Source of the DNA: a bacterium
GTDB taxonomy: Bacteria > UBA8248
NCBI GenBank assembly: GCA_965199855.1
Contig: OZ241326.1
Coordinates: forward strand, 352,001-416,000
DNA: 64,000 bases
Reading direction: 5' to 3'
The position numbers and the translations under genes were made by a program. Position 1 is the stretch's first letter; each line of letters opens with the position of its first letter. Below are positions 1-57,651 of this stretch, one piece after another. Below the pieces are notes generated by a model. That model did no database searches. It saw only the letters and a list, made by a program, of their open reading frames with translations, and was not told the DNA's origin.

Positions 1-894
1 GGACGGCAGGGTGTACTTGTCGAGAAAGGCGATGATCTTCGGATTCTCGGCCGCGAACTTCGCGGTCACCGACTTCGGCAGCTCCACCGACGGATAGGCG
101 GTCGCCTTCTTCGGGTCGCCCATGGCGCCCTCGCCGCCCTTCTTCACCGCCGTCACGTGCTTCATCATTTCGTCCCAGTCGGCCTTGTTCCACGCCGGCT
201 CCTCGAGCTTGACCAAGTCCAGCTGCCCCAGCAGCGGCGTCGGCGCCCAGTAGTAGGCGAGCACCGGCTTCTTCTTGATGTAGGCGCCCTTGATGGCCGC
301 CGCCAGCGCGCCGCCCGAGCCCGGACGGAAGTTCGTGTAGTGCTTCTCCAGCCCGTAGACGCGCATCTTCACCGTGTTGATGAGCTCGCAGGTCCAGCCC
401 GGGATGCAGTTCACGAAACGGCCCTTGGAGGGATTCTCGGGGTCCGTGAAAAGATGCTTGTACTTCGGAAGATCGAACACCGACTTGAGGCCCGGGTTCT
501 GCTTCTGGACGAAGCGCGGGATATACCAGCCCTGCTCGCTGTCCGGCGTATTGACGCTCAGCCGCTTGACCTTTCCGCTTTTCAGAGCGGCGTCGTATTG
601 CTCCTTGAGGTTCTCGTACCAGAGCTCCATGACCACGTCGTTCTTGCCCTTGTAGTGCGCCGCCATAATCGGCAGGGTGCCGCCGTAGGTCATCTTCACC
701 TCGCAGCCGTAGCCGTGCCGCAGGATGAAGGCGGTCACCTGGTCGTGGAAGTTCGCGCTGTCCCAGTTGAAGTCGCCGATGTGAACACGGCAGGCCGCCT
801 CCGCCCCGCGAGGCGAGGCGAGAGACGCGGCGGCGATGATGACGGCGAAAGCGGCTACCGCGAGCGCCCTGAACTTCATGGTCTTCGGCTTCAT
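1..894 (-). CDS. Glycine betaine/proline-type ABC substrate-binding protein (ProX/OpuAC family), copy 1; 3' end lies outside the window
   Basis: Absent from the ORF track because it runs off the window. Manual translation MKPKTMKFRALAVAAFAVII...; near-identical to 1034..2068 at offset 1189 nt. Confidence 0.85.
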   Translation of the reverse strand, partial: MKPKTMKFRALAVAAFAVIIAAASLASPRGAEAACRVHIGDFNWDSANFHDQVTAFILRHGYGCEVKMTYGGTLPIMAAHYKGKNDVVMELWYENLKEQYDAALKSGKVKRLSVNTPDSEQGWYIPRFVQKQNPGLKSVFDLPKYKHLFTDPENPSKGRFVNCIPGWTCELINTVKMRVYGLEKHYTNFRPGSGGALAAAIKGAYIKKKPVLAYYWAPTPLLGQLDLVKLEEPAWNKADWDEMMKHVTAVKKGGEGAMGDPKKATAYPSVELPKSVTAKFAAENPKIIAFLDKYTLPS

Positions 895-1033: not shown

Positions 1034-2068
1034 TCAGGCGGCGGCGAGCGCCGCCTCTATCTTCTTCGCCACGTCGGCCGGCACCCACTTCTTCCACACC
1101 TTGTTGGTTTTGAGGAAGTGGATGGCGGTGGTCTTCGCGTCGCCGTTCGCTTCTTTCTCGAGATAGGCCAGCGCCTTCGAGACCACGCTGGACGGCAGGG
1201 TGTACTTGTCGAGAAAGGCGATGATCTTCGGATTCTCGGCCGCGAACTTCGCGGTCACCGACTTCGGCAGCTCCACCGACGGATAGGCGGTCGCCTTCTT
1301 CGGGTCGCCCATGGCGCCCTCGCCGCCCTTCTTCACCGCCGTCACGTGCTTCATCATTTCGTCCCAGTCGGCCTTGTTCCACGCCGGCTCCTCGAGCTTG
1401 ACCAAGTCCAGCTGCCCCAGCAGCGGCGTCGGCGCCCAGTAGTAGGCGAGCACCGGCTTCTTCTTGATGTAGGCGCCCTTGATGGCCGCCGCCAGCGCGC
1501 CGCCCGAGCCCGGACGGAAGTTCGTGTAGTGCTTCTCCAGCCCGTAGACGCGCATCTTCACCGTGTTGATGAGCTCGCAATACCAGCCCGGGATGCAGTT
1601 CACGAAACGGCCCTTGGAGGGATTCTCGGGGTCCGTGAAAAGATGCTTGTACTTGGGAAGATCGAACACCGACTTGAGGCCCGGGTTCTGCTTCTGGACG
1701 TAACGCGGGATGAACCAGCCCTGATCGCTGTCCGGCGTGTTGGCGCTCAGCAGCTTGATCTTGCCGCTCTTTCTGGCGGCCTCGTAGCCGTCCTTGATGT
1801 TGTCGTACCATACCTCCATGACCACGTCGTTCTTGCCCTTGTAGTGCGCCGCCATAATCGGCAGGGTGCCGCCGTAGGTCATCTTCACCTCGCAGCCGTA
1901 GCCGTGCCGCAGGATGAAGGCGGTCACCTGGTCGTGGAAGTTCGCGCTGTCCCAGTTGAAGTCGCCGATGTGAACACGGCAGGCCGCCTCCGCCCCGCGA
2001 GGCGAGGCGAGAGACGCGGCGGCGATGATGACGGCGAAAGCGGCAATCGCAAGAATTTTGAGTCTCAT
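1034..2068 (-). CDS. Glycine betaine/proline-type ABC substrate-binding protein, copy 2
   Basis: Signal peptide; NWDSA, MEVW, CIPGW and YYWAPT motifs typical of ProX-like SBPs. Confidence 0.88.
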   Translation of the reverse strand: MRLKILAIAAFAVIIAAASLASPRGAEAACRVHIGDFNWDSANFHDQVTAFILRHGYGCEVKMTYGGTLPIMAAHYKGKNDVVMEVWYDNIKDGYEAARKSGKIKLLSANTPDSDQGWFIPRYVQKQNPGLKSVFDLPKYKHLFTDPENPSKGRFVNCIPGWYCELINTVKMRVYGLEKHYTNFRPGSGGALAAAIKGAYIKKKPVLAYYWAPTPLLGQLDLVKLEEPAWNKADWDEMMKHVTAVKKGGEGAMGDPKKATAYPSVELPKSVTAKFAAENPKIIAFLDKYTLPSSVVSKALAYLEKEANGDAKTTAIHFLKTNKVWKKWVPADVAKKIEAALAAA

Positions 2069-5378: not shown

Positions 5379-5975
5379 CTACCCCGCCCGCGCGGAGGCG
5401 AAATAGGTGTTGCCGTCGAAATCCCACCAGCGGGCGCGCCGAAAGCCCGCCTTTCGCAATTCGCCCAGCAACTCGGCGGGGCGAAAGCGCGCGCGAAGGG
5501 GCGGCCCCATGTCCATGGGCTTTCTGTGCCATTCGATCAGGACGAGCGAGCCTTTTTCCCGCGTCGCGCGGCGGGATTCCGCAAGCAGGGGCCCGGGGTC
5601 GGCCATCCCGTGAACCACGAACGCGAGAAGAGCGAGGTCCGCGCTCCCGTCGGGAAAGGGGACGCGGGGGTTTTCGCATCGCCTCGCCGTCAGGTTGGCG
5701 CGGCCGCGCTCCTTCGCCTGCGCCCGGACCTCCCGTATCATTACGGGCGAAGTGTCGCACGCGAGCACGCGCCCGTATTTTCCCACCACGCCGCAGGCGG
5801 GAAGCGAGAAATACCCGGGGCCGCAACCCACGTCCAGAAAACTCATGCCGCGCCCGAGGCCCAGGCCGCGCAGCGTCCTGGCGGGCGGCATGACGCGGCG
5901 TCTCTGGCGGGTGAGAAGCAGATGCCGCCTGCGGGCGGGAAACGTCCATTCCAGCCGCGGGGACGCGCCGCTCAA
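5379..5975 (-). CDS. Class I SAM-dependent methyltransferase
   Basis: FLDVGCGPGYF motif I and GPP...R tail. TTG start overlaps the upstream stop (TTGA). Confidence 0.85.
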   Translation of the reverse strand: MSGASPRLEWTFPARRRHLLLTRQRRRVMPPARTLRGLGLGRGMSFLDVGCGPGYFSLPACGVVGKYGRVLACDTSPVMIREVRAQAKERGRANLTARRCENPRVPFPDGSADLALLAFVVHGMADPGPLLAESRRATREKGSLVLIEWHRKPMDMGPPLRARFRPAELLGELRKAGFRRARWWDFDGNTYFASARAG

Positions 5976-7054
5976 GCCTCGTCCTCGAGGTAGCCGCTGA
6001 GCGCCTCGCGGATGAAGCCCTCCTCGCGCCCCTCCCGGATGAGCAGGAGCCCCTCCGCCAGGCACTCGAGCCTGCGCCGCTCCCGGTCGAGGCGGGTCTG
6101 GCCCTTTCGCGCCAGAAGCCTTTCCACGTCGTCTATCGCGGCGCCGTCGAGCCCCCATTTCAGCCCCATCTTGAGAAGAGGCTCCTGAATCCACTCGAGC
6201 CGCTCCTCTATCGCGCCGCTCCCCTCGCGGCCGGCGAGGCCCGCGAGCTCCACGCACAGGCCGATGATGTCCACCGCGGCCTGCGCCGACGGGGAGAAGC
6301 GGACGCCGGGCAGGCGCTCGTAGTCCGCCTCGCCCTCCGGCAGGAAGGCGACGAGCCGCGCCCGCGCCCGCTCCTCGCTCGCTCCCTCGAGTATCGCCAG
6401 CGCGCCCTCTATGGCGATCTCCTTGTTCCGCTCCATCGCGCCGAGGGCGGATTCTATCTGCCGCGCGAGGATCATCTCGGCCTCGTCGCAGGGTGCCTGA
6501 TCCGCCAGCATCCGCAGACCGGCGGCGAAAATTCCGTCCGGACTCCGCTCGAGCGCGGGCTCCAGGGAGAGCAGGCCGTGCCGCTCCGCGCGCGCGGCGA
6601 GGGCGGCGACCACCGAAACCGCCTGCCCGGCCGCGCTTTCGGGGGCGTGAAACGCGGCGATCTCCTCCTCCAGCGCCTGCTCCAGCGGGGGAATGGCGTC
6701 ATCGGCGGGGCCGTCGAATGTGATGTCGCCGTGCTCCTTCATGGCGTAGGCGGTTTCCATCAGCATCTGGCGCGCCTCGACCGCCTGGCCGTTCTCGTCC
6801 GCCTCGCTCCTCTTGATTTCCTCGCGGATGCGCGCCGCGTTCCTGGACGAGACGTTCCGCAGCACGCGCTCCACCACGCCCGCCTCCGCGTCCCGAAGCG
6901 CCAGGGCGAGAACCTCGAGGTCGAGCCGCTCGATGACGCGCCGCAGCGCGCGGCCGGACATCTCCGCGATGGGGGCGAGGTCGGGGTTCTCGCCGGGGGA
7001 GAAAAAGCGATGCCCGGGGGGCTCCTCCATCCAGCGATCGCGGTCAAGACTCAT
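5972..7054 (-). CDS. FliG C-terminal domain fused to two MotA-cytoplasmic-like repeats, no TM helices
   Basis: LALALRDA...RNVSSRNAARIREEI...HGDI is FliG_C-like. AERHGLLSLE...IEGALAILEG...LVAFLP and AGREGSGAIE...AEGLLLIREG...LSGYL are MotA-like. Confidence 0.7.
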   Translation of the reverse strand: MSLDRDRWMEEPPGHRFFSPGENPDLAPIAEMSGRALRRVIERLDLEVLALALRDAEAGVVERVLRNVSSRNAARIREEIKRSEADENGQAVEARQMLMETAYAMKEHGDITFDGPADDAIPPLEQALEEEIAAFHAPESAAGQAVSVVAALAARAERHGLLSLEPALERSPDGIFAAGLRMLADQAPCDEAEMILARQIESALGAMERNKEIAIEGALAILEGASEERARARLVAFLPEGEADYERLPGVRFSPSAQAAVDIIGLCVELAGLAGREGSGAIEERLEWIQEPLLKMGLKWGLDGAAIDDVERLLARKGQTRLDRERRRLECLAEGLLLIREGREEGFIREALSGYLEDEA

Positions 7055-7106: not shown

Positions 7107-8750
7107 TCAATTCTCCTCGGCCAGCTTCGGGGGCTGGACGGAGCGGTTCACGTAGAACTGCTGGGCGATGGAGAGCAGGTTGTTCACCAGCCAGTAAATC
7201 ACCAGGCCGACGGGCACGGGATAGAAGACGAACATGCCCGTGAAGATGATGGGCATGAACATCATCATCTTCGCCTGGGTGGGGTCGCCCGCCATGGGCG
7301 TCATCTTCTGCTGCAGGAACATCGACGCGCCCATGAGTATCGTATAGACGTGGTAGGGGTCCTGCACCGAGAGGTCCTGCACCCAGCCGAAGAAGGGCGC
7401 GTTGCGCAGCTCTATCGACACGAGAAGCGCCTCATACAGCCCGAAGAACACGGGAATCTGTATCAGCATGGGCAGGCAGCCCATCATCGGGTTGACCTTG
7501 TGCTCCTTGTAGAGGGACATGGTCTGCTCGTTCAGCTTCGTCTTGTCCTCCTTGTAGATCTCCCGAAGCTGCGCGATGCGCGGCTGGAGCTTCTGCATCT
7601 CCTTCATGTTGCGCATGCTGACGTGGGTGAGGGGATAAAAGACGATCTTCACCAGGATGGTCAGCAGGATGATGGCCACCCCCCAGTTGCCCGCCACGGC
7701 GTGCAGGGCGCGAAGAATCGACATGAGCGGCTTGGCGATGAAGGCGAACATTCCGTAGTCCAGAGAATCCTCCAGGCCGACGCCGAGCCTTTCGAGATGA
7801 TCCAGCGCCTTGGGGCCCGCGTAGACGTCGAAGGCCGCCTCGACCTCCCTTCCCCGCGAGAGGGGGACGATGGCGGCGTATTCGCTCAGGACGTCCGTCT
7901 GGCCGAGCAGGCGAACCTCCGCGCCGCCCGCCCCGCTTCGGGGGATGAGCGCCGCGATGAAGTGCTTCGACTGCAACGAGGTCCACTTGAGGCCCTCGCC
8001 GTGGGCGACGGGCTTTCCCTCCTCGGGATAGTCATAGACGATCTCCTTGCCCACGAAGCTCATCGGCCCCTCGATGACGCCGCCGTAGGTGTTGCCGTCG
8101 CTTCCGCCCACCCGCGGGCCCCAGACGACGCCGATGGCCTCTTCTCCCAAGGGGCGGGAAACCCGTATCCTGGTCTTCACGTTGTAGCTGTTGTACCTGA
8201 AGGCGAGCGTCTTCTCCGCCGAGAGGCCGTCCTCGCCCCGGTAGAGGAACCGCACCACCCCCTCGGGATTCGTCCTCGAGAGGGAGAGATCGCCGCCCTC
8301 GACCTGATAGGACGCCTCGTTCAGCCGCTGCGCCGTCCGCCCGCCCCAGAAGAAAAGAGGCCGCACGTCCGGGCGGCCCGCGGGCACGAGTTCGACGAAG
8401 CCCCTCTCGCCCTGCCTGTATTTGAGCAGGCGCGCGGAGAGAAAGCCCGCGCCCCGGCTCGTCAGCTCATACACCGCGTCGCCCACGTCCACGCGGACGC
8501 GGCGCTGCGGCGCGGAGGCGGTGGGAGCGGGAGCCGGGGACGCGGCGGAAGTCGCCGGCCCGACGGCGGGCGGCGACCTAAGGGGCGCGCTGGCCGCGCT
8601 CCCTCCCTTGCCGCGCTGGGCCGCGGCGCGCGCCTTGGCCGCCCGCTGCTTCTGGGCCTGCTCCTCCTCCATCGGCCTCACGACGAGGTATTGCCAGCCG
8701 ATCAGGATCGCCAGCGACAGGACGGCGGCGAGAATCGCGTTTTTTTCCAT
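7107..8750 (-). CDS. yidC: Membrane protein insertase YidC
   Basis: GNWGVAIILLT, NPMMGCLPMLIQIPVF, YWLVNN; canonical context. Confidence 0.97.
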   Translation of the reverse strand: MEKNAILAAVLSLAILIGWQYLVVRPMEEEQAQKQRAAKARAAAQRGKGGSAASAPLRSPPAVGPATSAASPAPAPTASAPQRRVRVDVGDAVYELTSRGAGFLSARLLKYRQGERGFVELVPAGRPDVRPLFFWGGRTAQRLNEASYQVEGGDLSLSRTNPEGVVRFLYRGEDGLSAEKTLAFRYNSYNVKTRIRVSRPLGEEAIGVVWGPRVGGSDGNTYGGVIEGPMSFVGKEIVYDYPEEGKPVAHGEGLKWTSLQSKHFIAALIPRSGAGGAEVRLLGQTDVLSEYAAIVPLSRGREVEAAFDVYAGPKALDHLERLGVGLEDSLDYGMFAFIAKPLMSILRALHAVAGNWGVAIILLTILVKIVFYPLTHVSMRNMKEMQKLQPRIAQLREIYKEDKTKLNEQTMSLYKEHKVNPMMGCLPMLIQIPVFFGLYEALLVSIELRNAPFFGWVQDLSVQDPYHVYTILMGASMFLQQKMTPMAGDPTQAKMMMFMPIIFTGMFVFYPVPVGLVIYWLVNNLLSIAQQFYVNRSVQPPKLAEEN

Positions 8751-9410: not shown

Positions 9411-9551
9411 CTAGGAGGAAACGCCGAGACGCTTGCGGCGCTTGGCCCGACGCCGCCTGATGATCGCGCGGCCCCCGGTGGTCCTCATCCGCCGACGAAA
9501 CCCGTGCGTCTTCGCCCGCTTCCTTCTGTTCGGCTGATAGGTTCGCTTCAC
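9411..9551 (-). CDS. rpmH: 50S ribosomal protein L34
   Basis: Manual translation [46 protein letters not shown] (GTG start); too short for the ORF track. Confidence 0.97.
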
Positions 9552-9842
9552 GAAACGCTCCACATCCCGGCCCGAAAGGCCGGCTCCTCAAGACGCCGGC
9601 GCGCGACAGGGAAAACGCGCACCCGAAAAACCGGGCGTAAGATATCCGCCGGAGTCCCGATTGTCAAGAACCGACCGACGCCGCGCGGACGGACAAGAAA
9701 TCGCCCGTCCCGGAGAGGGCCCGGTTTCACTCCCCTCGCTCTCGCTTTTTCCCTAAAAAAACTTGGTTTTTGTTCGCGGCCACCGGAAAATCTGAAAAAA
9801 CACCTCTTTTCCCGTGAAAGGCGCTTGCCCCGGGCGCTGTTT

Positions 9843-9892
9843 TGTGGAAAACTCCCATCTTCGTCAGTCTCATGCCTCGCCCTTGTGGAAAA
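9843..9892. promoter_or_regulatory. Two DnaA boxes upstream of dnaA
   Basis: TGTGGAAAA at 9843 and 9884 (reverse complement TTTTCCACA). Confidence 0.7.
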
Positions 9893-9957
9893 CGCTCGCC
9901 GGCGCGTTGCCAGAGAACGCCTCGCCACGCGGCGGCCTTTGCCCATCGGTTCACGCC

Positions 9958-11277
9958 ATGACGAATCTGTGGCTTCGTTGCGCGGATAAAATCAGGGAAG
10001 AGGTATCCCCGAAAACGTTCGAGCGATGGTTCGCCGGCGTCGAGGAAGTGGACGCGAACGAATCCTCCCTGACGATCCAGGCACCCAACTCCTTCACGGC
10101 GGGAGCTCTGCGCTCACGCTATTGGGGCATCCTGACGGACATCCTCAAGCAGGAGGCCGGGCCGAACGTCGCGCTCGCGCTATTGGCCGGCAACGGCGCG
10201 AGCGAAAAGCGCGCGGAAGAAGGGCCGGCGGAGCGCGACCCCGCGCCCAAGCGCCCGGACTTCCTGAACCCCAGATACCACTTCGAGAATTTCGTGGTGG
10301 GCGCGTCGAACGAGCTCGCCCACGCCTGCGCCGCCCGCGTGGCGGACGGCATGGGCGCCACGCTCAACCCGCTTTTCATCTACGGCGGGGTGGGTCTCGG
10401 CAAAACACACCTGCTGCACGCCATTGCTCACCGCATTCTCAGCAAGCGTCCCGGAGCCCGCGTCTTCTACGCCTCGGCGGAGAGCTTCGTCAACGACCTC
10501 ATCTCCTCGATCAGGCGAAACCGCATGGCCGCGTTCAGAAACAAATACAGAAAAGTGGACGCGCTGATGATAGACGACATCCAGTTCATCGCGGGCAAGG
10601 AGCGAACCCAGGAGGAGTTCTTCTTCACCTTCAACTCCCTGCACGAAGCGAGAAAGCAGATCATCATCACGAGCGACAAAATGCCCAAGGACACGCCGGG
10701 CCTGGAGGAGCGTCTCCAGGCGCGCTTCGTGTGGGGGATGATGGCGGACATCGGCGCGCCCGACTTCGAGACCAAGGTGGCCATCCTCCAGAAAAAGGCG
10801 AGCGAGCAGGAGCTCTCCCTCCCCCGCGAGGTCGCCCACTACATCGCCGAGAAGGTTCGCTCCAACATCCGGGAGCTCGAGGGATGCCTCATCAAGCTCA
10901 ACTTTCACGTTTCCCTGCACGACATCGAGATTGACCTGCCGGTCGCGCAGGAGGTGCTGCGGAGCATCATCCGCGACCCCGCGCGCAACTCCTCGGTGGA
11001 CAACATCCAGAGAATCGTAGCCGCCCACTTCCAGGTGCGGGTCGCCGACCTCAAATCGAAAAACCGCTCGCGGTGCTTCGCGATTCCCCGGCAAATCGCC
11101 ATGTATCTGTCAAGAAAACTCACGCGAGCCTCGACCACGGACATCGGACGCCGCTTCGGCGGCAAGGATCATTCCACGGTCATTCACTCCACCAATAAAA
11201 TCGAGGAACTGCTCAAAACGGATCAGGCTCTCTCGGACGCCATCCAGGCCATCCGCCAGAAGATAGACCTCTCCTGA
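9958..11277 (+). CDS. dnaA: Chromosomal replication initiator DnaA
   Basis: NPLFIYGGVGLGKTHL, IDDIQF, RELEG, GGKDHSTV. Confidence 0.98.
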   Translation: MTNLWLRCADKIREEVSPKTFERWFAGVEEVDANESSLTIQAPNSFTAGALRSRYWGILTDILKQEAGPNVALALLAGNGASEKRAEEGPAERDPAPKRPDFLNPRYHFENFVVGASNELAHACAARVADGMGATLNPLFIYGGVGLGKTHLLHAIAHRILSKRPGARVFYASAESFVNDLISSIRRNRMAAFRNKYRKVDALMIDDIQFIAGKERTQEEFFFTFNSLHEARKQIIITSDKMPKDTPGLEERLQARFVWGMMADIGAPDFETKVAILQKKASEQELSLPREVAHYIAEKVRSNIRELEGCLIKLNFHVSLHDIEIDLPVAQEVLRSIIRDPARNSSVDNIQRIVAAHFQVRVADLKSKNRSRCFAIPRQIAMYLSRKLTRASTTDIGRRFGGKDHSTVIHSTNKIEELLKTDQALSDAIQAIRQKIDLS

Positions 11278-11512
11278 AAAGAAGTGGAAAGAGTTGTGGA
11301 CAACGGTGTTGAAACCCCGCGGCCTCGCCGCGCTCCATGGAAAAATGATGCGCGAAAAACGCTTGTCCACAACCGCGCCAACATGCCAGGTCTCGAAAAA
11401 GACGCTTTTTTTCAGCCTCGTATCCGGTTTTCCACAAATTCACGCTCCCTGTCACTACTATTTTCTGGATATTTTCCTGCATCCTAAAAGATCTGGTATC
11501 TGAGAATATCCC
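11278..11512. other. Replication origin oriC (DnaA boxes, basal unwinding element, AT-rich DUE)
   Basis: TGTGGACAA 11295, TTGTCCACA 11363, TTTTCCACA 11428 followed by AATTCACGC-TCCC-TGTCACTACTATTTT and an AT-rich tract. Confidence 0.85.
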
Positions 11513-15144
<3,632 letters not shown>

Positions 15145-19919: not shown

Positions 19920-20079
19920 GCGTTTTTCCCGTCCCTGCGGGCCGCGCGGCGCTTCCCGCGAACGCGCGCCGCGCCTGCTGGATTATTTTCCCGCGCTGTG
20001 GCATTTGCATGGCGCGGCGTTCTTTCATCCGCGCGCCCCGCCCGGCGAACCGGCGCGGGCGGCGAGGGAGGCTGGGCGC

Positions 20080-21510
20080 ATGGACGGCCACCACGGCGAA
20101 AGGGAGACCATCGTCGCGCTCTCCACGCCCCCCGGACGCGGCGCCATCGCCATCGTCCGCCTGAGCGGAGGGGAGTCGCTCCCGATTCTCGAGCGGATTT
20201 TCGCGCCCCGGAAAAAGAGAAGCGCCTTCCCCGCGCGGCGGCCCGTGCTGGGGCGCTTCGTGGAGGCGGGCGAGGCGTTCGACGAGGGGGTGGCGTTGTT
20301 TCACCCGGGCCCCGGCTCCTCCACCGGCGAGGACGTGGTCGAGATGCACTGCCACGGCGGCCCCGCCATCTCGCGCGCCATCCTGCGCCTGGCGCGGGAG
20401 GCGGGGGCGAGGACCGCCCTGCCCGGCGAGTTCACCCGTCGCGCCTTTCTGGAGGGGAAAATCGACCTGCTCCAGGCGGAAGCGGTGGCGGATCTGGTGA
20501 TGGCGCAGACCCAGCGGGCGGCGCGCGCCGCCCTCCATCACCTGGACGGGCGGCTTTCCTCGGCGCTCGAGGCGGCCTGGGAGAAAATCGTGGAGGCGGG
20601 CGCGCACGTCGAGGCGGCGATAGACTTTCCCGACGAGTTCGAGCCGGGGGCGGGTCCCTCGGTTTCGGGCGCGCCCATGGGCGGCGCCGGCCTCGCGCGC
20701 CTTTTCGCGGAGATAGAGGGGGCGCTGGCGAGGCTTCTGGCGAGCTACCGCTCCGGCAGGATTCTCCGGGAGGGGGCGCGGGCGGCCATTCTCGGAAGGC
20801 CCAACGCCGGAAAGTCCACCCTGCTGAACGAGATGCTGGGCGCCGAGCGCGCCATCACGAGCGAGATTCCCGGCACCACGCGGGACACGGTGGAGGAGGT
20901 CTGCGAGGTGGGCGGCGCACCGGTGCGGCTCATCGACACGGCGGGTCTCAGGGAGGCGGGCGATCCGGTCGAGCGCGAGGGGACGGCGCGGGCGCGAAGG
21001 GCGGCGGAGGGCGCGGACGTCTGCCTCATGGTGATGGACGCCGCGCGCGGGCGGGAGGAGGCGGCCTGGGCGGCGCGGGAGGCGCGCTCCCTGAAATGCC
21101 ATAATATATTTATATTCAATAAGTTGGATAAAATATCCCCCGAGGAGGGAGAGGAGGTGCGCGCCTTTTTGCGCGAGGTCGCGCCTGAGGCCGGCGAGCC
21201 CGTTTTCGTCTCCGCGCTGACGGGCGAGGGGCTGCCCGCGCTGCGAGAGGCGATGGCGCGCGCCCTGATGAACGGGGATGGTCTCCGGGGCGGCGAGGCG
21301 CTCCTCACGCGGGAGCGGCACCACGGGGAAATCTCCCGGTGCCTGGAGGCGGTGCGGCTCGCCGGGGCGGGCGCGCGGGAGGCGGCCTCGCCCGAGCTGG
21401 TGGCGGTTCACCTGAACGAGGCGCAGTCCGCCCTCTCCGGGCTTTTGGGGAAGGATTACGGAGAGGCGCTGCTGGACAGGATTTTCTCCACCTTCTGCAT
21501 CGGAAAGTAG
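20080..21510 (+). CDS. mnmE: tRNA modification GTPase MnmE
   Basis: [33 protein letters not shown]-terminal FCIGK. Confidence 0.97.
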
Positions 21511-21562
21511 GGGCGCGCGGGCGGGCTTCGCCTCGTTCGCGCGGAATTCGGGAGGCTTCGGC

Positions 21563-23491
21563 TTGGGCGGTCGTTATGACGTCATCGTCGTGGGCGGCGG
21601 ACACGCCGGCTGCGAGGCGGCGCTCGCCGCCGCGCGCATGGGCGCCCGCGCCCTGATGCTCACGATGAACCTCGACACCGTGGGCCTCATGTCGTGCAAT
21701 CCGGCGATAGGCGGGCTGGCCAAGGGCGTTCTGGTGCGCGAGGTGGACGCCCTGGGCGGCGAGATGGCGCGCGCCATCGACGCCACGGGGATTCAGTTCC
21801 GGATGCTCAACACGAAGAAGGGCCCCGCCGTGCAGGCCCTGCGCGCCCAGGCGGACAAGCAGCGATACCGCGCCTGGATGAAGCAGGCGGTCGAAAGCCA
21901 GGAGAACCTCCATCTCAAGCAGGGCATGGCGCAGAGGCTTCTCGTGAAGAACGGGGCGATAGCGGGCCTTCGCGATCACTTCGGGGAGGTTTATGAATGC
22001 GCCGCGCTCGTCCTCACGCCGGGCACCTTCGCGCGCGGCCTTCTCCACTACGGGGCGCGGAAGGTGGAGGGCGGGCGCGCCGGCGAGGGCGCGGCGAACG
22101 AGCTGACCGCCCAGCTCCTCTCCCTCGGCTTCTCGATGGGGCGGATGAAGACGGGGACGCCCCCCAGGATAGACGCGCGATCCATCGACTTCGGGCGGCT
22201 CGCCGTCCAGCCCGGAGACGAGCCGCCCCTTCCGTTCTCCTACCGGACGCCCGCCATCGAGCGGGAGCAGACGCCCTGCTGGATCGCCTGGACGAACCCG
22301 CGGACGCACGGAATCATCCGGGAGAACATCGACCGCGCGCCGATGTACAACGGGCAGATCGAAGCCGTCGGCGTCCGGTATTGTCCGAGCATCGAGGACA
22401 AGATCATGCGGTTCGAGGGCAAGAGGGAGCACCAGATATTCCTGGAGCCCGAAGGCCGGGAGACCCGCGAGATTTACGTGAACGGGCTCTCCACCAGCCT
22501 GCCGGTGGACGTGCAGACGCGGATGCTGAGGACGATAGAGGGCCTGGAGAAGGTCGAGATGATGCGCCCCGGCTACGCGGTGGAATACGACTACGCGGCG
22601 CCGACCGAGCTCGACGCGAGCCTGATGACGAAGAGGACGCCCGGGCTGTTTCACGCCGGCCAGATGAACGGGACGACCGGCTACGAGGAGGCCGCGGCCC
22701 AGGGAATCATCGCCGGCGTCAACGCCGCGCGGCGGGCGGGCGGCGGCGACCCCGTCGTTCTTGGGCGGGAGGAGGCGTACGTCGGCGTTCTGATTGACGA
22801 TCTCACCACCAGGGGAACGGCCGAGCCCTACCGGATGTTCACTAGCCGCGCCGAGCACAGGCTGAGGCTGCGGCACGACAACGCGGATTTCCGGCTCATG
22901 GAGCTGGGCCATCGCGTGGGCTCCCTGGACGGGGCGGCCTTCCGCGCCTTTCGGGCGAGGGCGAAGCGGGCGCGCGAGGCCATCGCCTACGCGGAGAGGA
23001 CGATGGCGCGACCGACGCCCGGGGTTCGGAGCGTTCTGGAGGCGGCGGGCTCCCGCGTGCTCAGGAAGCCGGCGTCCCTGGGCGACATTCTCCGCAGGCC
23101 GGAGGCCGGGCCGGAGCTGGCGGCGCGCGTTGACGCCGTGAACGGGGGCCGCTTTCGGGCGATCTGGGAAGGACTCGGAAGGGAATCCCGGCGATACGTT
23201 CTGGCGGAAATCAAATACAGGGAGTATTTCGAGCGCGAGCATCGGCAGGTCGCCCACCTGAGAATGGCCGACCGGGTGACGATACCCGAGGACATCTCCT
23301 ACGCCGGGGTGAGCCACCTCACCGCCGAGGTGAGGCAGAGGCTCGAGCGGATACGCCCCCGGACGCTCGGGCAGGCGAGCCGCATTTCGGGCGTGACGCC
23401 GGCCGCGATCGCCGTGCTGGAAGTCCACCTCCGAAAGCGAAGCGGGGAATCCGGTCGCCGGGAGCGCGTTCCCGTCCGCGATGACGAATAG
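21563..23491 (+). CDS. mnmG: tRNA uridine modification enzyme MnmG (GidA)
   Basis: [39 protein letters not shown]. Confidence 0.98.
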
Positions 23492-23581
23492 CCCGAGATA
23501 ATCGCCCCCCCCTCGCCGTCGGCGCGGTCCCTCCGAATACGGGAAGCCCCCCCCCTCGCCGGGAGCAAAAACCTCTCGAAT

Positions 23582-23597
23582 TGTTCCACGTGGAACA
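23582..23597. promoter_or_regulatory. parS site 1
   Basis: Perfect palindrome TGTTCCACGTGGAACA. Confidence 0.95.
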
Positions 23598-23650
23598 TTT
23601 TGCCGTCCCGGGGGAGCCGTTCGGCGGAATCCCTCCCGAAAGCTCCGAAT

Positions 23651-23666
23651 TGTTCCACGTGGAACA
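23651..23666. promoter_or_regulatory. parS site 2
   Basis: Perfect palindrome TGTTCCACGTGGAACA. Confidence 0.95.
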
Positions 23667-23733
23667 TTCGTCGAACGTTCGCCGCCGGAAAACAGGGGCC
23701 GGCGCGCGTCTGGTATGCTGTCGCCACAAATTT

Positions 23734-23749
23734 TGTTCCACGTGGAACT
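23734..23749. promoter_or_regulatory. parS site 3
   Basis: TGTTCCACGTGGAACT (1 mismatch). Confidence 0.9.
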
Positions 23750-23825
23750 TTTTGTTGAATTTTTCCGGGCGATGTGAGAGCCTTTGAACGCTGGCTTTTC
23801 TTTCGCCTCGCCCTGAAAGCGGGAT

Positions 23826-24665
23826 ATGGAAACGGCGCTCAGCGAGGCGGCCCCGATGATCGGCCGGAATTCCGATGCGGGCGAGGACGCCTGCAGGGTC
23901 GTTGCCGTCGTGAACCAGAAGGGGGGCGTCGGCAAGACGACGACGGCGGTGAACCTGGCGGCCTGCCTCGCCGTGGCGAATGAGCCGACCCTGCTGGTCG
24001 ATCTGGATCCGCAGTCGAACGCGACGAGCAATTTCGCTTTATTTTCGCAATCTTCCGCCCTTTACAGCGCTCTGGTTCTGGACGGATCGATTGATGATGA
24101 ATCCTTGCAAAAGACTGAAATAAAAGGGCTTTGCGTTCTGCCCTCCTCCATCGATCTGGCGGGGGCGGAGGTGGAGCTCGCGGGGTTGCCGGAACGGGAG
24201 AATCGCCTGCGGAAGGCGCTCGCGCCGATGCGGCGGCGGTTTCGCTACGTATTCATCGACTGCCCGCCCTCGCTCGGCTTTCTCACCCTGAACGGCCTGC
24301 GGGCGGCGGACGAGGTGCTGATACCCATCCAGGCGGAATACTTCGCGCTCGAGGGTCTGGCGCGGCTGATGAAGACGGTGGAGCGGGCGCGGCGAAGCCT
24401 GCATCCCGCCTTGAGGGTGGGCGGAATCCTGCTGACCATGTATGATTCGAGAACGAATCTCTCGCGTCAGGTGCGGGAGGATTTGAGGTCCCACCTGCCG
24501 GAGCTGACCTATCGGGTCGTGATTCCGAGGAGCGTGCGGCTGGCGGAGGCGCCGAGCCACGGAAAGCCGGTGATCGCCTATGACATCTCCTCGCCGGGCG
24601 CCCAGGCGTATCTCGCCCTGGCGAGCGAGTTTCTGGCGCGCTCGAAGGAGGGGAAGAGGGGCTGA
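23826..24665 (+). CDS. parA: Chromosome partitioning ATPase ParA/Soj
   Basis: NQKGGVGKTTT, DLDPQ, DCPPSLG, LAEAPSHG. Confidence 0.96.
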   Translation: METALSEAAPMIGRNSDAGEDACRVVAVVNQKGGVGKTTTAVNLAACLAVANEPTLLVDLDPQSNATSNFALFSQSSALYSALVLDGSIDDESLQKTEIKGLCVLPSSIDLAGAEVELAGLPERENRLRKALAPMRRRFRYVFIDCPPSLGFLTLNGLRAADEVLIPIQAEYFALEGLARLMKTVERARRSLHPALRVGGILLTMYDSRTNLSRQVREDLRSHLPELTYRVVIPRSVRLAEAPSHGKPVIAYDISSPGAQAYLALASEFLARSKEGKRG

Positions 24666-24667
24666 GG

Positions 24668-25588
24668 ATGGCGACCGCGAGAAAGAGAGGACTCGGCAGG
24701 GGGCTGGACGCGCTTCTCTCCCCCGGCGAGGCGGAAGCGCCTGCGGAGGCGGCGGCGTCCCCGCGCGCCGCGGAGGAGGGAGAAGTTCTGGTTCGTCTCT
24801 CGCCGGACAGCCTCGCCCCCGGCGTTCACCAGCCCCGGGTCGATTTCGACGAGGAGGATCTCTTCGAGCTCGCCGAGTCCGTCAGGCGGCACGGGGTGAT
24901 TCAGCCCATCCTGGCGCGGCGAACCGAGGGCGGCGGATACGAGATCGTGGCGGGGGAGAGGCGCTGGCGCGCCGCGCGCCTGGCCGCCGTCGATGAGATT
25001 CCCGCCATCCTGGTGGACGCCGCGGGGGACGAGGCGCTCGAGCTGGCGATCGTCGAGAACGTCCAGCGCGCGGATTTGAACCCGATGGAGGCGGCGGCCG
25101 CCTACGCGAACATGATGGAGCGCCTCGCCCTGACGCAGGAGGAGGTCGCCGCGCGCCTGGGCAAGGAGCGCGCGACGGTGGCGAACTGCGTCCGGCTTCT
25201 GCGGCTGCCCCCCTCCGTTCAGGAGAGCGTGGCCGCCGGCCTGCTCTCCATGGGACACGCGAAGGCGCTCCTCTCGCTGCGGACGCGGGAGGAGATGGCG
25301 AGCCACGGCGAGGAGGCCGTCCGCAAGAGGCTCTCCGTGCGCCAGCTCGAGCGGCGCCTGCGAAGGGCGCTCCCGGGCGAGAGCCGGGAGGAGGCGGCGG
25401 CCGGGAGCGCCGGACGCCGGGGCGGGCCCTCGGGGCCGCAGGCGCTCTATCTCCGAGAGGCGGCGGATCGGCTCAGGGGCGCGCTGGGCGCGAAGGTTTC
25501 GATTTTGGGGGACGAGAACAAGGGGACGATTGAAATCGAGTATTATTCGACCGAGACGCTCGAGGGGCTGATTCAGCGGATTTGCTGA
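24668..25588 (+). CDS. parB: Chromosome partitioning protein ParB
   Basis: GLGRGLDALL, GERRWRA, ENVQRADL, HTH. Confidence 0.96.
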   Translation: MATARKRGLGRGLDALLSPGEAEAPAEAAASPRAAEEGEVLVRLSPDSLAPGVHQPRVDFDEEDLFELAESVRRHGVIQPILARRTEGGGYEIVAGERRWRAARLAAVDEIPAILVDAAGDEALELAIVENVQRADLNPMEAAAAYANMMERLALTQEEVAARLGKERATVANCVRLLRLPPSVQESVAAGLLSMGHAKALLSLRTREEMASHGEEAVRKRLSVRQLERRLRRALPGESREEAAAGSAGRRGGPSGPQALYLREAADRLRGALGAKVSILGDENKGTIEIEYYSTETLEGLIQRIC

Positions 25589-35260: not shown

Positions 35261-36208
35261 CTAATATCCCCCTGAAGGCTTCGCCTTGTTTGCGCTGAAG
35301 TCGAGCAGATAGGTCTCATCGTCTATCTTGAAGAACGTCACATCCGTTCTTCCATGCTTCTCCAGATGCTCTTTTGTTACATACTCTCCCGAGGGCACTC
35401 CCAGCCGCTTTCGGAGATACGCGCCAAGCAGGCTGTTGTCTCTGGTGGTATGAAGTCCTTTTCCGCTGTCCTGCGCCCGAACGAAAATAAAAGCCTCGCC
35501 GTCGTCCGTATGGACGGTAAAAGGCGCATGGCGTTCGGGGAAGAAATCGCCGTCTCCTATCCTGACGGGAATGTTGATGTAAGCCTGGTTTTTGTTTCGT
35601 CCCCGGCGCTGTCCCCAGTTGACGCCTGATCTCTTGGGCGTCTCTTTGGTCTTGCTGTCGAGCAAGGACAGCGTGACTTCCTCAAGGCCCCTCGCTTCTT
35701 TCTGGGCGATGCTTTGGGATATGAGCATCCGTCTGCGTATGCTGGATTCCCTGCAGTCCGTAGTGTGCTTGAGCGCGCGCTCATAAAACTGATTCGCCCC
35801 AGCCGGATCGGAAGAAGCCATCCCCTCGATCTGATTTCCCCCGAACCCCGCCATGGTGTAGTTCGCCGAGCCGCAGAAGGCGCTCTCGGGCTCGCCTTTG
35901 TCATTCAGCCATACATACGATTTGACGTGGACGGGATTTCCCCGCGTCACGTATCGGCACTGAAATTCGATCCCGCCCTGGGGGGCGTCAGCCAGTTTGC
36001 GAAACGCGGAATGCTGCGCCTCCTGCATTCCATACGCGACGGTCATTCCCACGATAAGATCGATGGAAACCTCAAGATTTTCTTTGCGCAGATGCTCCAT
36101 GTGGCTATCCGCCATTCCCGCGGTGGCGAATCCGCTGACAATGCGCAATTTGCGAAACTTGCGGGCCGGCTCCAGCAGAACGCGCTGAAGCAGGCTGTTG
36201 CTGATCAC
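35261..36208 (-). CDS. PLD-family restriction endonuclease (NgoFVII-like)
   Basis: IVSGFAT, HVKSY (HxK), GSANYT, SGVNWGQR; overlaps the C5-MTase; lower GC. Confidence 0.8.
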   Translation of the reverse strand: MISNSLLQRVLLEPARKFRKLRIVSGFATAGMADSHMEHLRKENLEVSIDLIVGMTVAYGMQEAQHSAFRKLADAPQGGIEFQCRYVTRGNPVHVKSYVWLNDKGEPESAFCGSANYTMAGFGGNQIEGMASSDPAGANQFYERALKHTTDCRESSIRRRMLISQSIAQKEARGLEEVTLSLLDSKTKETPKRSGVNWGQRRGRNKNQAYINIPVRIGDGDFFPERHAPFTVHTDDGEAFIFVRAQDSGKGLHTTRDNSLLGAYLRKRLGVPSGEYVTKEHLEKHGRTDVTFFKIDDETYLLDFSANKAKPSGGY

Positions 36209-37215
36209 AGGGAACGCCTGGAGACGTGATGCCTGACGAGCGCGTCAAGAACGCCCCGGAAAATAACTTCCGCGCCCCTTGGAGGAACGGCCATTCCGAT
36301 TTGTCTGCGGACGGATTCCTTGCCGCCCCGGAAAACGAAGTCGTCGGGAAAAGTCTGGAGGCGGGCGCGCTCCCTGTTCGTCAATGCGCGGTTCTCTTTC
36401 CAGTGGTAGATGTGGGTTCCGCCGCCGCCCGAGCCCGTCACGGTGTAGCTTGGCGCGTCGGGCTTCAGCCGCTTGTATATCTGGCTTATTTTTGCGCCTT
36501 TGACGCGCAACTTCAGATGCTCCGGCAATTCGGCGGTAAAGGCGTTTTCTCCCGGGCGGATGTATCTCAGCCGCTCGACCACGTTCTTCGATTGTCTGGT
36601 CAGCTCGTTGTTGGGAGCGGTCGCGGGAATTTTCGAGAGCGCGCGTTCAGCCGCCACGGGCTTTTTCTTGTGGGTTGGAGCGGGATGCCTGAAATGCCGG
36701 ATATCCAGATCCTTGCGAAAGCCGACGATGATAATCCTGTGGCGGGTTTGCGGGACGCCGTATTCCTCAAAGCGGTACGTGTGGGGAAACAGGCGGTATC
36801 CCGCTTTTTCCAGCGACTCGAGGATGGTGTTGAAATCTCGCTTCCCTCCGCTTGACTTGATGCCGTTCACGTTCTCCGCAACAAAGAAGGAGGGCTGTTT
36901 GATCTCGAGCGCCTTCACCCCCCAGGCGTAAAGCCCCCCGTATCGCCCGGATATGCCCTGCCGCTCTCCCACCACGCTGAAGTCGTTGCACGGGAAGCCG
37001 AACACCAGTCCATCGATGTCGGGCATCTTCTCCAAATCGATCTCGGCGACATCCCCGCATATCACCGATGGTATGGGGACGTTTCCTCTGAGCGTCCGGC
37101 AGGCGTCCTCGTCGTTGTCGTTCGCCCAGACGCAGGAAAATCCCGCCCTGTGCGCTCCGAGCGCCATGCCGCCTGCGCCGGAGAACAATTCAGCTATTCT
37201 ATAGGGCCTGTTCAT
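36205..37215 (-). CDS. dcm: DNA (cytosine-5) methyltransferase
   Basis: LFSGAGG, GFPC, ENV, Q.R.R, RERARLQTFPD. Confidence 0.95.
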   Translation of the reverse strand: MNRPYRIAELFSGAGGMALGAHRAGFSCVWANDNDEDACRTLRGNVPIPSVICGDVAEIDLEKMPDIDGLVFGFPCNDFSVVGERQGISGRYGGLYAWGVKALEIKQPSFFVAENVNGIKSSGGKRDFNTILESLEKAGYRLFPHTYRFEEYGVPQTRHRIIIVGFRKDLDIRHFRHPAPTHKKKPVAAERALSKIPATAPNNELTRQSKNVVERLRYIRPGENAFTAELPEHLKLRVKGAKISQIYKRLKPDAPSYTVTGSGGGGTHIYHWKENRALTNRERARLQTFPDDFVFRGGKESVRRQIGMAVPPRGAEVIFRGVLDALVRHHVSRRSL

Positions 37216-37654
37216 TTTTTCGTCTTGAATCGCCGGGCGCCCACTCCTCGGATTCTCTGATTTTTCTCGCGAGTTTCGTGATCTTCCGGGGCTCCGCTTC
37301 GCACTCCCATAGGACGAAAACCCTCCATCCCATCTTCTTCAGGATAACACGGACTTTCTGGAAGCGATCGATGTTTCTCTTCAGTTTGGGGCGCCAATAG
37401 TCCTGGTTCGATTTTGGCATTGCGGCCCTCTTGCAGCCCTTGTGCTGATGCCAGAAGCATCCGTGAATGAATACGATCGCCCGATGCTTCTTCAAGACAA
37501 TGTCGGGGCTGCCGGGAATATCCTTTTGGTGCAGACGAAATCGAAGCCCCCGTCGATGGAGTCCCGAGCGAACGGAAATCTCGGGCTTCGTATTCTTTGA
37601 GCGAATCCTGGACATAATCCGGCTTCGCTCTTCCTTGGTGAATGCGTCGGCCAC
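37199..37654 (-). CDS. vsr: Very short patch repair endonuclease
   Basis: D.F...RS.IMSRIRSKNTKPE, PG.PD, HGCFWHQH, WECE. Confidence 0.95.
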   Translation of the reverse strand: MADAFTKEERSRIMSRIRSKNTKPEISVRSGLHRRGLRFRLHQKDIPGSPDIVLKKHRAIVFIHGCFWHQHKGCKRAAMPKSNQDYWRPKLKRNIDRFQKVRVILKKMGWRVFVLWECEAEPRKITKLARKIRESEEWAPGDSRRKNEQAL

Positions 37655-37719
37655 GGAAATCTTCGCCTCCAGGGGCCCGCGCGTTCTTGAATGCCCCGCC
37701 CCCTCCGATCCACGCCGGG

Positions 37720-56017: not shown

Positions 56018-57520
56018 TCATCCGAAAGCTCGGGCAAATCCCTTCTTTCGCACAGCCGGCGAGCGAGCCTTCGCCCTTTCCGACAACGGAAAATCCTTGA
56101 TGAACGACTTCGCGTAGGAAAACCAGCCGTTCCTGTACGGACGGGACGCCAGGGCGATATACCACTCCATGAACGGGCTGTTCAATTCCTCGAGCAGATC
56201 GTCCAGGCTGACGCCCGGATGCGGTTTTACGCAGTAGCCGCCGTAGAACAGGGAATCGGCGTCATCGCAGTATTGAAAATCGGGCTTCGGGTTCATGCCG
56301 GAGGTCAATATCTTTTTCCCAAACCCCTTGACGATGGATACGTCCCTGCCGAAGCCGTGCCACCTGTCGGGGGGAAACGCGCCCTTGTCTCTGCCCAGCA
56401 GCCTCTTCCTGTGCCTGAGCAGCCATTCGTAAGCCTTTGGAAATCGCCCTTCAAATTCATCCTCCGGCAGCAGTTTTCCGTTTTCATAAGGGTATATCAC
56501 TACGCGGTTCACGGCGTCTTTTCCCTTCTTCATGGCGGAGGCTTTGTAGATTCGCCTCACCGCCTTTGGCTCAAGGTCGACGGCTCCTTCGGGAAGGACG
56601 AACACGTCATCGGCGAGAGTCTGGACGCCTACGTGAATGTCGGCGATATCCGACAGCTTCAGGGAGCTTCTACGGCGGAGCGCCGTTCTGTCGGCTTTCG
56701 ACATCGCCCGCCATTTCTCATCCGTCAAATGGACGCGATACCCGTTGCGCCATTCCGGCGCCCCGTTCGTTATGGAAACGCATTTTTCCACGTTTGCGAC
56801 CCTGGAAGGCTTCGCGTCTTTTTCTATGGCCGCAATGGTGGTGTATGTCGTGGCGTTCTGGAAAACCTGATGCCGTCCAAAATCGAACAGGGCGGATATG
56901 CGGTGATTGCGCCGCAGATGCTCGCGAAAAGCCTTGCCGGAATCACTCGTCATCCAGCTGCTGGGCGTAATGAATGCCATCTTGCCCCGGCTTTTCAGAA
57001 GCCGGAGACCCATATCGAAAAAGAGCAGGTATAAATCGCAGGCGCCCCGCATGAAGTTCCACGAGCCGTTTTTTATCTTGTCGCGCCTGTCTTTCTCCAG
57101 GCGCTGGACGCGAACGTAGGGAGGGTTCCCGACGACGTAGTCGAATCTTCCGATCCACCGCTCCCATGAGGGAGCGTCTATGGCGTCTATGCGGCGCAGA
57201 TTCCACGCGACCGGCCCCAGGCGGTTTTTGTCGATCACCGCATCGAGGCGCTTCCTGCATTCATCGAGAGCCGTTCCGTCAATGTCGAACCCGGTTAGAC
57301 TGTTCAGCGTCCGGTAATGCCCGCCCCTGTTTTTTCCGGCCTGCTTAATCCGTCGGCAAACGCGCTCCGCGAGAGGGACGAGAAACTCCCCGTCTCCGCA
57401 CGCCGGATCGCAAATGCGCACGTCGGCGAGAGCGCCTCCCGGACACGCGTCCAGCATCAGATCCACAATGGGTCTCGGCGTATAGACTACGCCGAAATGC
57501 TTCTTGGGATTGGCGGCCAT
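56018..57520 (-). CDS. N6-adenine DNA methyltransferase (gamma class, TaqI/Eco57I-like), apparently orphan
   Basis: VYTP, DPACGDG, GNPPY, DLY..F; lower GC than its flanks. Confidence 0.9.
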   Translation of the reverse strand: MAANPKKHFGVVYTPRPIVDLMLDACPGGALADVRICDPACGDGEFLVPLAERVCRRIKQAGKNRGGHYRTLNSLTGFDIDGTALDECRKRLDAVIDKNRLGPVAWNLRRIDAIDAPSWERWIGRFDYVVGNPPYVRVQRLEKDRRDKIKNGSWNFMRGACDLYLLFFDMGLRLLKSRGKMAFITPSSWMTSDSGKAFREHLRRNHRISALFDFGRHQVFQNATTYTTIAAIEKDAKPSRVANVEKCVSITNGAPEWRNGYRVHLTDEKWRAMSKADRTALRRRSSLKLSDIADIHVGVQTLADDVFVLPEGAVDLEPKAVRRIYKASAMKKGKDAVNRVVIYPYENGKLLPEDEFEGRFPKAYEWLLRHRKRLLGRDKGAFPPDRWHGFGRDVSIVKGFGKKILTSGMNPKPDFQYCDDADSLFYGGYCVKPHPGVSLDDLLEELNSPFMEWYIALASRPYRNGWFSYAKSFIKDFPLSERAKARSPAVRKKGFARAFG

Positions 57521-57651
57521 CGCGCACTCAGATCCTCGCATCGCGGCCTTCCGCCGACTGCGGGGCCGGGCAGGGACACGATACGATCAATCGGCTCCGT
57601 TCCGCAATTTCCCTCGCCTTGCCGGAAGGCGCATTCGTCAACGTAGCGCCC

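Follow-up and report, generated by a model that had tools for sequence, protein, structure and literature searches.

A soluble protein joining a FliG torque domain to two MotA-like repeats, encoded behind yidC and belonging to a wider, apparently undescribed family

To our knowledge, the contact between MotA and FliG is known only as a transient, force-bearing step of a membrane motor. The locus described here raises the question of what this contact could do when both of its surfaces are carried by one soluble chain. Solving the contact is reported to have needed an artificial fusion (PMC11302681, in the part available). The gene lies in a window of 64,000 nucleotides, the whole stretch of DNA analysed, where the initial annotation, made from the letters of the sequence, had proposed a FliG torque domain followed by two MotA-like repeats devoid of transmembrane (TM) segments. 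Pfam, NCBIfam and alignment with MotA bore out both the architecture and the homologies. The feature holds up as real and conserved, seems not to have been described before, and belongs to a wider family. In the following, F denotes the FliG torque domain and M a repeat made of the MotA cytoplasmic loop spliced to the C-terminal tail.

5972..7054, minus strand: gene for the soluble FliG_CC-M-M protein (open reading frame, codon pattern, AlphaFold2 model)
6710..6985, minus strand: F domain, residues 24-115, the helical C-terminal FliG torque domain only (Pfam; structure matches to 1lkv and 4fhr)
6809..6856, minus strand: torque helix, residues 67-82 (offset of 210 to Salmonella FliG; ungapped alignment with T. 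maritima FliG)
6335..6649, minus strand: repeat M1, residues 136-240, MotA cytoplasmic loop plus tail, with E165 as E98 equivalent and E157 at the R90 position
5981..6295, minus strand: repeat M2, residues 254-358, a more degenerate motif, with G275 at the R90 position, R276 adjacent and E283 at the E98 position

The open reading frame starts with ATG and encodes 360 amino acids. Its GC3 is 0.90, its codon pattern resembles that of its neighbours, and the nucleotide differences from five orthologues are concentrated at third codon positions (48/33/133 by codon position against the orthologue L002). Judged against these orthologues, the gene is under purifying selection, and the reading frame looks like a real gene. 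The plus-strand frame is open too, but family matches and codon pattern are all on the minus strand, and a wrong strand or shadow frame was discarded, as was pseudogene status. The maximal Kyte-Doolittle value over 19 residues is 1.51, against a median of 2.28 and a minimum of 1.64 in 53 MotA proteins. By hydropathy the protein has no TM helices, MotA's TM1 and TM2 being absent besides TM3 and TM4; a membrane protein with overlooked helices was ruled out by hydropathy, MotA alignment and motif spacing. No PADLOC family was matched at E 0.01, and neither a glycosyltransferase nor a PilZ domain gave a Pfam match at E up to 1.

Pfam PF01706 (FliG_C) matches residues 29-112 with E 8.4e-12 (45.8 bits, the cut-off being 23.3), covering model positions 24-107 only, and the NCBIfam FliG model TIGR00207 gives 33.7 bits against a cut-off of 226.7. 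The model of residues 24-115 superimposes on 1lkv with Z 14.9 and an rmsd of 1.7 Å over 92 aligned residues, which correspond to T. maritima FliG 236-327, and on 4fhr with Z 15.2 and rmsd 1.4. None of the N, M and ARM_C parts of FliG was found in the protein. The ARM_C segment, used by FliG for C-ring swaps, comprises residues 198-233 (PMC11302681, in the part available), and since F begins after it, F is the stator-facing part of FliG only. The resemblance to FliG_C noticed earlier for residues ~25-113 is thereby confirmed, and the alternative then named, an MgtE-like or other ARM fold, was rejected, as MgtE reached Z 5.8 against 14.9 for FliG and MgtE_N gave no Pfam match. The charged torque helix is likewise present, the segment quoted at the time lying at residues 67-80, with R71, E78 and E79 corresponding to R281, D288 and D289 of FliG; among 29 close relatives, R71 is conserved in 28, E78 in 26 and E79 in 27.

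The two repeats, of 105 residues each, have an identity of 32/100, and their Smith-Waterman score of 108 was equalled by 0 of 2000 shuffles (mean 31.4, sd 5.8). Alignment with real MotA resolves each repeat into residues ~70-140 joined to ~215-250, a deletion of 75 residues relative to MotA. The D(G) and E(G) motifs are 31 residues apart in the query protein. Of 227 repeat domains, 61 of them from the close family, 213 have a spacing of 31-33, against 106 in 49 of the 50 MotA proteins having both motifs (57 scanned). Since the short spacing recurs in this way, the TM deletion is precise and shared rather than the decay of one genome. Six NCBIfam MotA/PomA/MotP models match the protein piecewise, all far below their whole-protein cut-offs: the MotA equivalog score is 50.4 bits against a cut-off of 340, and PRK08124, far below its equivalog cut-off, matches in three stretches with E 1.4e-13. 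The family profile matches MotA of 8UCS with E 1.6e-27, and the M domain has no Pfam model of its own. Alignment, spacing and hydropathy thus agree with the two ~100-residue loop-tail repeats without TM3/TM4 that had been described from the sequence, and their likeness to MotA is found both in profiles and in the structural model (Z 14.6, rmsd 5.4).

The helices that lead into TM3 and out of TM4 are antiparallel in MotA. The AlphaFold2 model of the full-length protein (pLDDT 87.8, pTM 0.82) and that of M1 by itself both give the spliced segment as a single helix of 34 residues, through which the hydrophobic pattern is continuous.

6389..6490, minus strand: splice helix of M1, residues 189-222, a single 34-residue helix predicted to span the TM3/TM4 deletion
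6035..6136, minus strand: splice helix of M2, residues 307-340 (AlphaFold2 model)

The two-repeat model (residues 137-360) aligns to MotA ~69-250 over 140-158 residues, more than the size of one repeat, with Z 9.2-15.0. The M1-only model aligns only as far as MotA residue 206-212 and never reaches the tail; its Z of 5.3-5.7 is at the level of unrelated proteins, the top match being a CsoR-type repressor tied with MotA, and it has no structural match at Z ≥8. From these alignment ranges we infer a swapped pair, in which the front half of M1 and the tail of M2 would build one MotA-like head and the reverse halves the other. The pTM of 0.82, reached though the repeat pair makes up no more than about 65% of the chain, suggests a fixed predicted placement of F relative to the pair. 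For helical bundles, Z values below or near 13 may be generic, and at E 0.001 neither the full-length nor the M1-only model had a Foldseek match; the homology therefore rests mainly on sequence. The structural comparison that the initial annotation had proposed stood in part: MotA and FliG rank first in Foldseek, though below significance, and FliG gives Z 14.9, but nothing reaches E 0.001. ExbB/TolQ proteins gave Z 4.5-5.2 against the 9.2-15.0 of MotA/PomA.

The positions corresponding to R90 and E98 were read from the alignment with B. subtilis MotA, whose aligned positions we take to equal R90 and E98 of the E. coli numbering. In the motor, R90 pairs with D288-D289 and E98 with R281 (PMC12505986, in the part available). 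Neither repeat of the query protein has an arginine at the R90 position, where E157 (M1) and G275 (M2, with R276 beside it) are found, and both have a glutamate at the E98 position (E165 and E283). Across 30 close relatives, the E98 position is acidic in all 30 for M1 and in 13 for M2, the R90 position is arginine in 5 and 8, respectively, and the arginine adjacent to it in M2 is kept in 28. Retention of the acid in M1 and of the arginine in M2 could reflect a division of labour or the decay of one head.

In the proteins with one F and one M, the pairs are better preserved. Those with F first (27) carry R/K at the R90 position in 23, E/D at the E98 position in 23 and R at the R281 position in 21, and those with M first (30) carry R/K in 30, E/D in 28 and R/K in 24. 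Among the charged positions of M in these 57 proteins, the R90 and E98 equivalents rank second and third in conservation (0.84 and 0.79), and the most conserved columns are mainly glycines and positions of the hydrophobic core. Four of the 57 have no basic residue at R90, and all four have no acid at D288/D289 either (Fisher p 0.006, uncorrected); this co-loss ranked third among 147 charge-pair tests and comprises 3 independent pairs (sign test p 0.25). No association was found in the single-F single-M proteins between loss of R281 and of E98 (p 1.0). Hence, as judged by alignment, the charges of the torque pairs are mostly kept across the family, but the query protein no longer has the R90 equivalent.

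A phmmer search of 1.84 billion representatives gave 132 matches, of which 126 remained once 6 members or fragments of the close family were removed. Full M and F share a chain in 101 of these, 5 have M only, 17 F only and 3 a partial M; the share of joint proteins is biased upward, as the query held both domains. F comes first in 57 of the 101 and M first in 44, and because of this the F-M pairing can be said to survive reordering. The commonest domain orders are MF (30 proteins), FM (27), FMM (25), MMF (7) and MMMF (4). M-only forms are also represented by P0200, P0202 and Atlas clusters of 140-192 amino acids without Pfam match. Two relatives, P0054 and P0071, have multiple repeats and also keep FliG_M; two others, P0035 and P0036, consist of five soluble MotA-like repeats followed by two FliG_C, five being the number of MotA subunits in the stator. 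The FM linker has 31 residues without break in 25 of 27 proteins, whereas the MF linker has 33 residues in 26 of 30 and contains glycine in 24 of 30; MF proteins with glycine linkers may fold back on themselves. The query linker is of the 31-residue FM type, though its M1 linker contains glycine.

Named extra domains were found by Pfam in only 13 of 127 proteins scanned: ECF sigma (2), AraC (4), LRR (5), SpoIIE (1) and DnaB_C (1). At least eight further proteins (P0045, P0053, P0055, P0076, P0092, P0103, P0114, P0151) share before F-M an N-terminal domain of about 85 amino acids, unnamed and without Pfam match. The presence of the same pair on gene regulators suggests that the motor contact has been put to new use as a regulatory module. 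In P0098 and P0145 a full-length MotA, TM segments included, is naturally fused to FliG_C, plausibly a precursor or sister form of the soluble family; P0165 is another such fusion, and in all three the MotA is divergent, its TM3/TM4 segment being present but altered. In a quick tree computed under LG+G4 from 102 columns of 121 M domains, with many forks left open and with 23 close relatives and the multi-repeat proteins excluded, M1 and M2 are starred sisters within P0058 and within P0042. Tandem M pairs therefore have more than one origin, which would be expected were single-M proteins homodimers. The few records that label the Atlas look-alikes assign them to Spirochaetota, Bacillota and Thermodesulfobacteriota, and the top cluster may be that of the query itself. 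In the Atlas, clusters with 51-83 members bear an automatic name that ignores the M domain and implies no studied function, and two relatives are labelled MotA components in one source. A second-round profile search returned mostly canonical FliG and added three new domain-fusion relatives and two fragments of the close family, and most of what a region search with an MF protein brought up was canonical MotA, which served as controls. The 30 of 148 records listed from a plasmid collection included FliG matches and a single canonical MotA (L027), but no full-length relative. L027 (NZ_CP154629.1) is a 2.63-Mb Acetoanaerobium noterae 'plasmid' with canonical motA and 4 annotated features, and it may be a chromosome.

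The close family comprises 30 proteins of 46-99% identity, taken from 8000 candidates, and all 20 close homologues that were aligned match both the MotA and the FliG models. Its 26 loci lie in GTDB genomes titled Nitrospinota, Nitrospinaceae, Tectomicrobia or 'bacterium', hosts which we take to be the GTDB class UBA8248; one further genome, titled Methylococcaceae, has the same gene order. The surroundings in the window involve the following neighbours.

7107..8750, minus strand: yidC, upstream neighbour on the same strand, with a 53-base gap
9639..9667, minus strand: putative sigma-70-like promoter upstream of rpmH-rnpA-yidD-yidC (consensus match, 10/12)
20005-21510: mnmE

The 53-base gap holds no terminator-like site, and yidC and the gene are probably on the same transcript. 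The gene follows yidC in 25 of the 26 loci (the contig of the remaining one starts within the gene), immediately in 22 of them. In the three more divergent loci two genes intervene (L020:2600-3717, L021:3400-4514, L022:5600-6740), which by eye presumably resemble a DsbA-like thioredoxin and a DoxX/MauE-like membrane protein. The downstream genes, in the window and in the 26 loci, encode a methyltransferase or dehydrogenase. The frame is intact in 24 of the 26 loci, L024 being frameshifted near residue 196 and L026 cut by the contig end. As had been noted from the sequence, the gene occupies the place behind yidC usually held by jag and mnmE: mnmE lies at a distance, and no jag match was seen in the window. 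This place is lineage-specific synteny without discernible functional clue.

No gene for a flagellar stator or rotor protein (MotA, FliG) was found in the flanks of the 26 loci. Within the window, MotA and FliG profiles match only the 5972-7054 gene, and no flagellar family was found among 116 open reading frames in 7107-64000 (beyond 14 kb, those of at least 150 amino acids) or, by Pfam, among 6 on the other side of the gene, in accordance with what had been stated beforehand. A table of genomes lists FliO for 1 of 4 of class UBA8248, two of the three without FliO being over 94% complete, and FliO is present in about 95% of genomes with FliPQR (PMC12248157, in the part available). The accessible text of PMC10839748 and of PMC9531527 contains nothing on the motility of this class.

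Of the two functions suggested in the initial annotation, a motor clutch or decoy and a non-flagellar reuse of the torque interface, the latter appears better supported by the sequences. It is favoured by the regulator fusions (ECF sigma, AraC, SpoIIE), by the absence of stator and rotor genes from the 26 flanks and by the single FliO among four tabulated genomes; the clutch or decoy is disfavoured also because the modelled swapped pair differs from the pincer and the query protein has no R90 arginine. We tentatively propose, at somewhat less than even probability, that the protein is a non-motor, energy-free, self-docked interaction or switch module. A MotA lost its TM helices, with loop spliced to tail, and is joined to F, a step read directly in the sequences. 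The splice is predicted to yield one long helix, a single M being an open half, and two M halves would pair in swapped fashion into MotA-like heads, both halves being in one chain in the query protein. The retained torque charges might then let F dock back onto one head, which would close the module, and a partner or signal could compete for the F-head contact and open the module, this last being the weakest step. In relatives, opening may gate the fused ECF sigma, AraC or phosphatase domain, and the stand-alone query protein, with one F and two heads, might serve as adaptor or sink for such a partner.

Torque charges retained in proteins without a channel seem to count for an interaction module. 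M-only proteins (5 of 126, P0200, P0202 and the Atlas clusters) were counted against it, as was the observation that the close family, as aligned, has mostly lost the R90 equivalent yet keeps the acids. The motor FliG is reported to require two side-by-side MotA heads (PMC11302681, in the part available). The modelled swapped pair would not offer such heads, which counts against the module docking F; the 1:2 ratio of F to M matches the pincer of 8UCS, whereas the modelled geometry probably does not. A bolder extension, possible but doubtful, would make the torque interface a portable signalling module, in which a swapped soluble MotA head and a tethered FliG torque helix would open and close to control ECF sigma factors, AraC proteins and phosphatases in several phyla, non-flagellated hosts included, and would descend from natural MotA-FliG fusions.

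A clutch or decoy acting by mimicry, in which a free M head would bind FliG of the C-ring or F would bind real stators and uncouple torque, is unlikely in our estimate, although several observations fit it: the interface charges kept across the family, the FliG_M retained in P0054 and P0071, the five repeats of two relatives, the FliO of one class-UBA8248 genome, Atlas look-alikes mostly from Spirochaetota and Bacillota, phyla with many flagellated members (few cluster members having taxa), and the precedent of soluble clutches or brakes at the MotA-FliG interface (EpsE, YcgR). It is at odds with the missing flagellar linkage in 26 loci and with a gene intact in 24 of them though 3 of 4 tabulated genomes, presumably of the same lineage, are without FliO. 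Moreover, the query protein lacks the R90 equivalent, a mimic would not need to carry both halves on the same chain, since these would then tend to engage one another, and the sigma and AraC fusions are left unexplained. The swapped geometry unlike the pincer, the M-only proteins and the predominance of glycine and hydrophobic core among the most conserved columns would equally suit a purely structural role, with M as a dimerisation or scaffold domain or small-ligand sensor, F as a passive helical cap and the torque contact not re-formed; AraC proteins, too, commonly dimerise or sense through a second domain. This reading is distinctly unlikely, given the rank of the R90 and E98 equivalents among conserved charges and the company of F with M in either order.

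YcgR is reported to bind both MotA and FliG (PMC10140304, in the part available), and a one-chain copy of both surfaces is the shape expected of a bait for c-di-GMP brakes, which would capture PilZ effectors (YcgR, MotI) and relay the c-di-GMP state to transcription, in agreement with the regulator fusions; the window, however, showed neither a PilZ nor a cyclic-nucleotide gene, and we regard the bait as very unlikely. Most improbable of all is a YidC-linked helper for membrane-protein assembly (e.g. of ExbB/TolQ-type motors) or a decaying flagellar relic. The yidC gene upstream in 25 of 26 loci and the frameshift of L024 point that way, but two genes separate yidC from the gene in three loci, identical synteny holds for the unrelated downstream dehydrogenases, and purifying selection and intact frames speak against a relic.

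Compared with known systems, M is homologous to the cytoplasmic loop and C-terminal tail of MotA/PomA (8UCS, 6YSF, 6YSL, 8BRD; TGI4 type), which have four TM helices including the channel helices TM3/TM4, all missing from the query protein. It differs further by its tandem repeats, predicted swapped pairing and changed R90 position, with the E98 glutamate retained, and by having no MotB neighbour, whereas a MotA-type gene has its B-subunit gene directly downstream (PMC12505986, in the part available). With FliG it shares the fold of F (rmsd 1.4-1.7 Å) and the R281/D288/D289 charges, and not the N, M and ARM_C parts or a place in a flagellar cluster. ExbB/TolQ-type transporters are membrane channels, with which neither the TM helices nor more than a low Z is shared. 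MotI and EpsE are soluble proteins that concern the MotA-FliG interface, as is YcgR (PMC10140304, in the part available), but all three are glycosyltransferase-like or PilZ proteins, whereas the query protein is a copy of the interface itself. The engineered fusion of 8UCS likewise tethers FliG_C to MotA cytoplasmic domains, but it is membrane-bound and pentameric with side-by-side heads (PMC11302681, in the part available), whereas the query protein is soluble and probably swapped; P0098 and P0145 mirror that construct in nature. The query protein would work most like a tethered MotA-FliG_C contact and is a member of none of the MotA, FliG, ExbB/TolQ or known clutch families; its parts are known and its function is a proposed one.

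The initial annotation knew of no characterised protein of this architecture, and in the open literature, searched mainly at abstract level, no description of a protein with FliG_C and soluble MotA repeats was found. The words 'fusion', 'fused' and 'soluble' do not occur in the accessible part of the MotAB evolution paper, FliG is not mentioned in the text or one supplement of the ECF classification paper, and the accessible part of PMC12943098 does not mention such a protein. A natural soluble form of the contact, kept under selection and combined anew with regulators, would define a domain that has no model and passes under the names 'FliG' and 'MotA', labels by which flagellar genes in genomes can be overcounted. 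It would also be a further instance of motor components exapted for signalling, or else a new clutch of the mimicry type. The family would offer small soluble proteins for direct measurement of rotor-stator affinity and charge pairing and, if the signalling-module reading holds, a soluble one-chain model of the torque contact.

Several minor observations were made in the window, in which Rfam gave 0 matches. A near-identical copy of the OpuAC-type substrate-binding gene at 1034-2068 (minus strand) stands in tandem with it at the start of the window, with 97% identity over 856 bases, window 1-855 matching 190-1044 of the next copy (1190-2044); L001 likewise has an extended match. What is presumably rpmH (L34) lies at 9411-9551 (minus strand), below the size of the listed reading frames, and was found in the minus-strand translation. 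The recF gene comes immediately after dnaA, without an intervening dnaN (9814-12628), as in the related loci reaching that far, save that L001 has about 2.3 kb inserted. The genes mnmE, mnmG, parA and parB lie at 20005-25588, across the origin after gyrA, instead of after yidC. A DNA cytosine methyltransferase gene adjoins a Vsr endonuclease gene (36205-37894), and a separate adenine methyltransferase gene is found at 56018-57541, which suggests restriction-modification loci.
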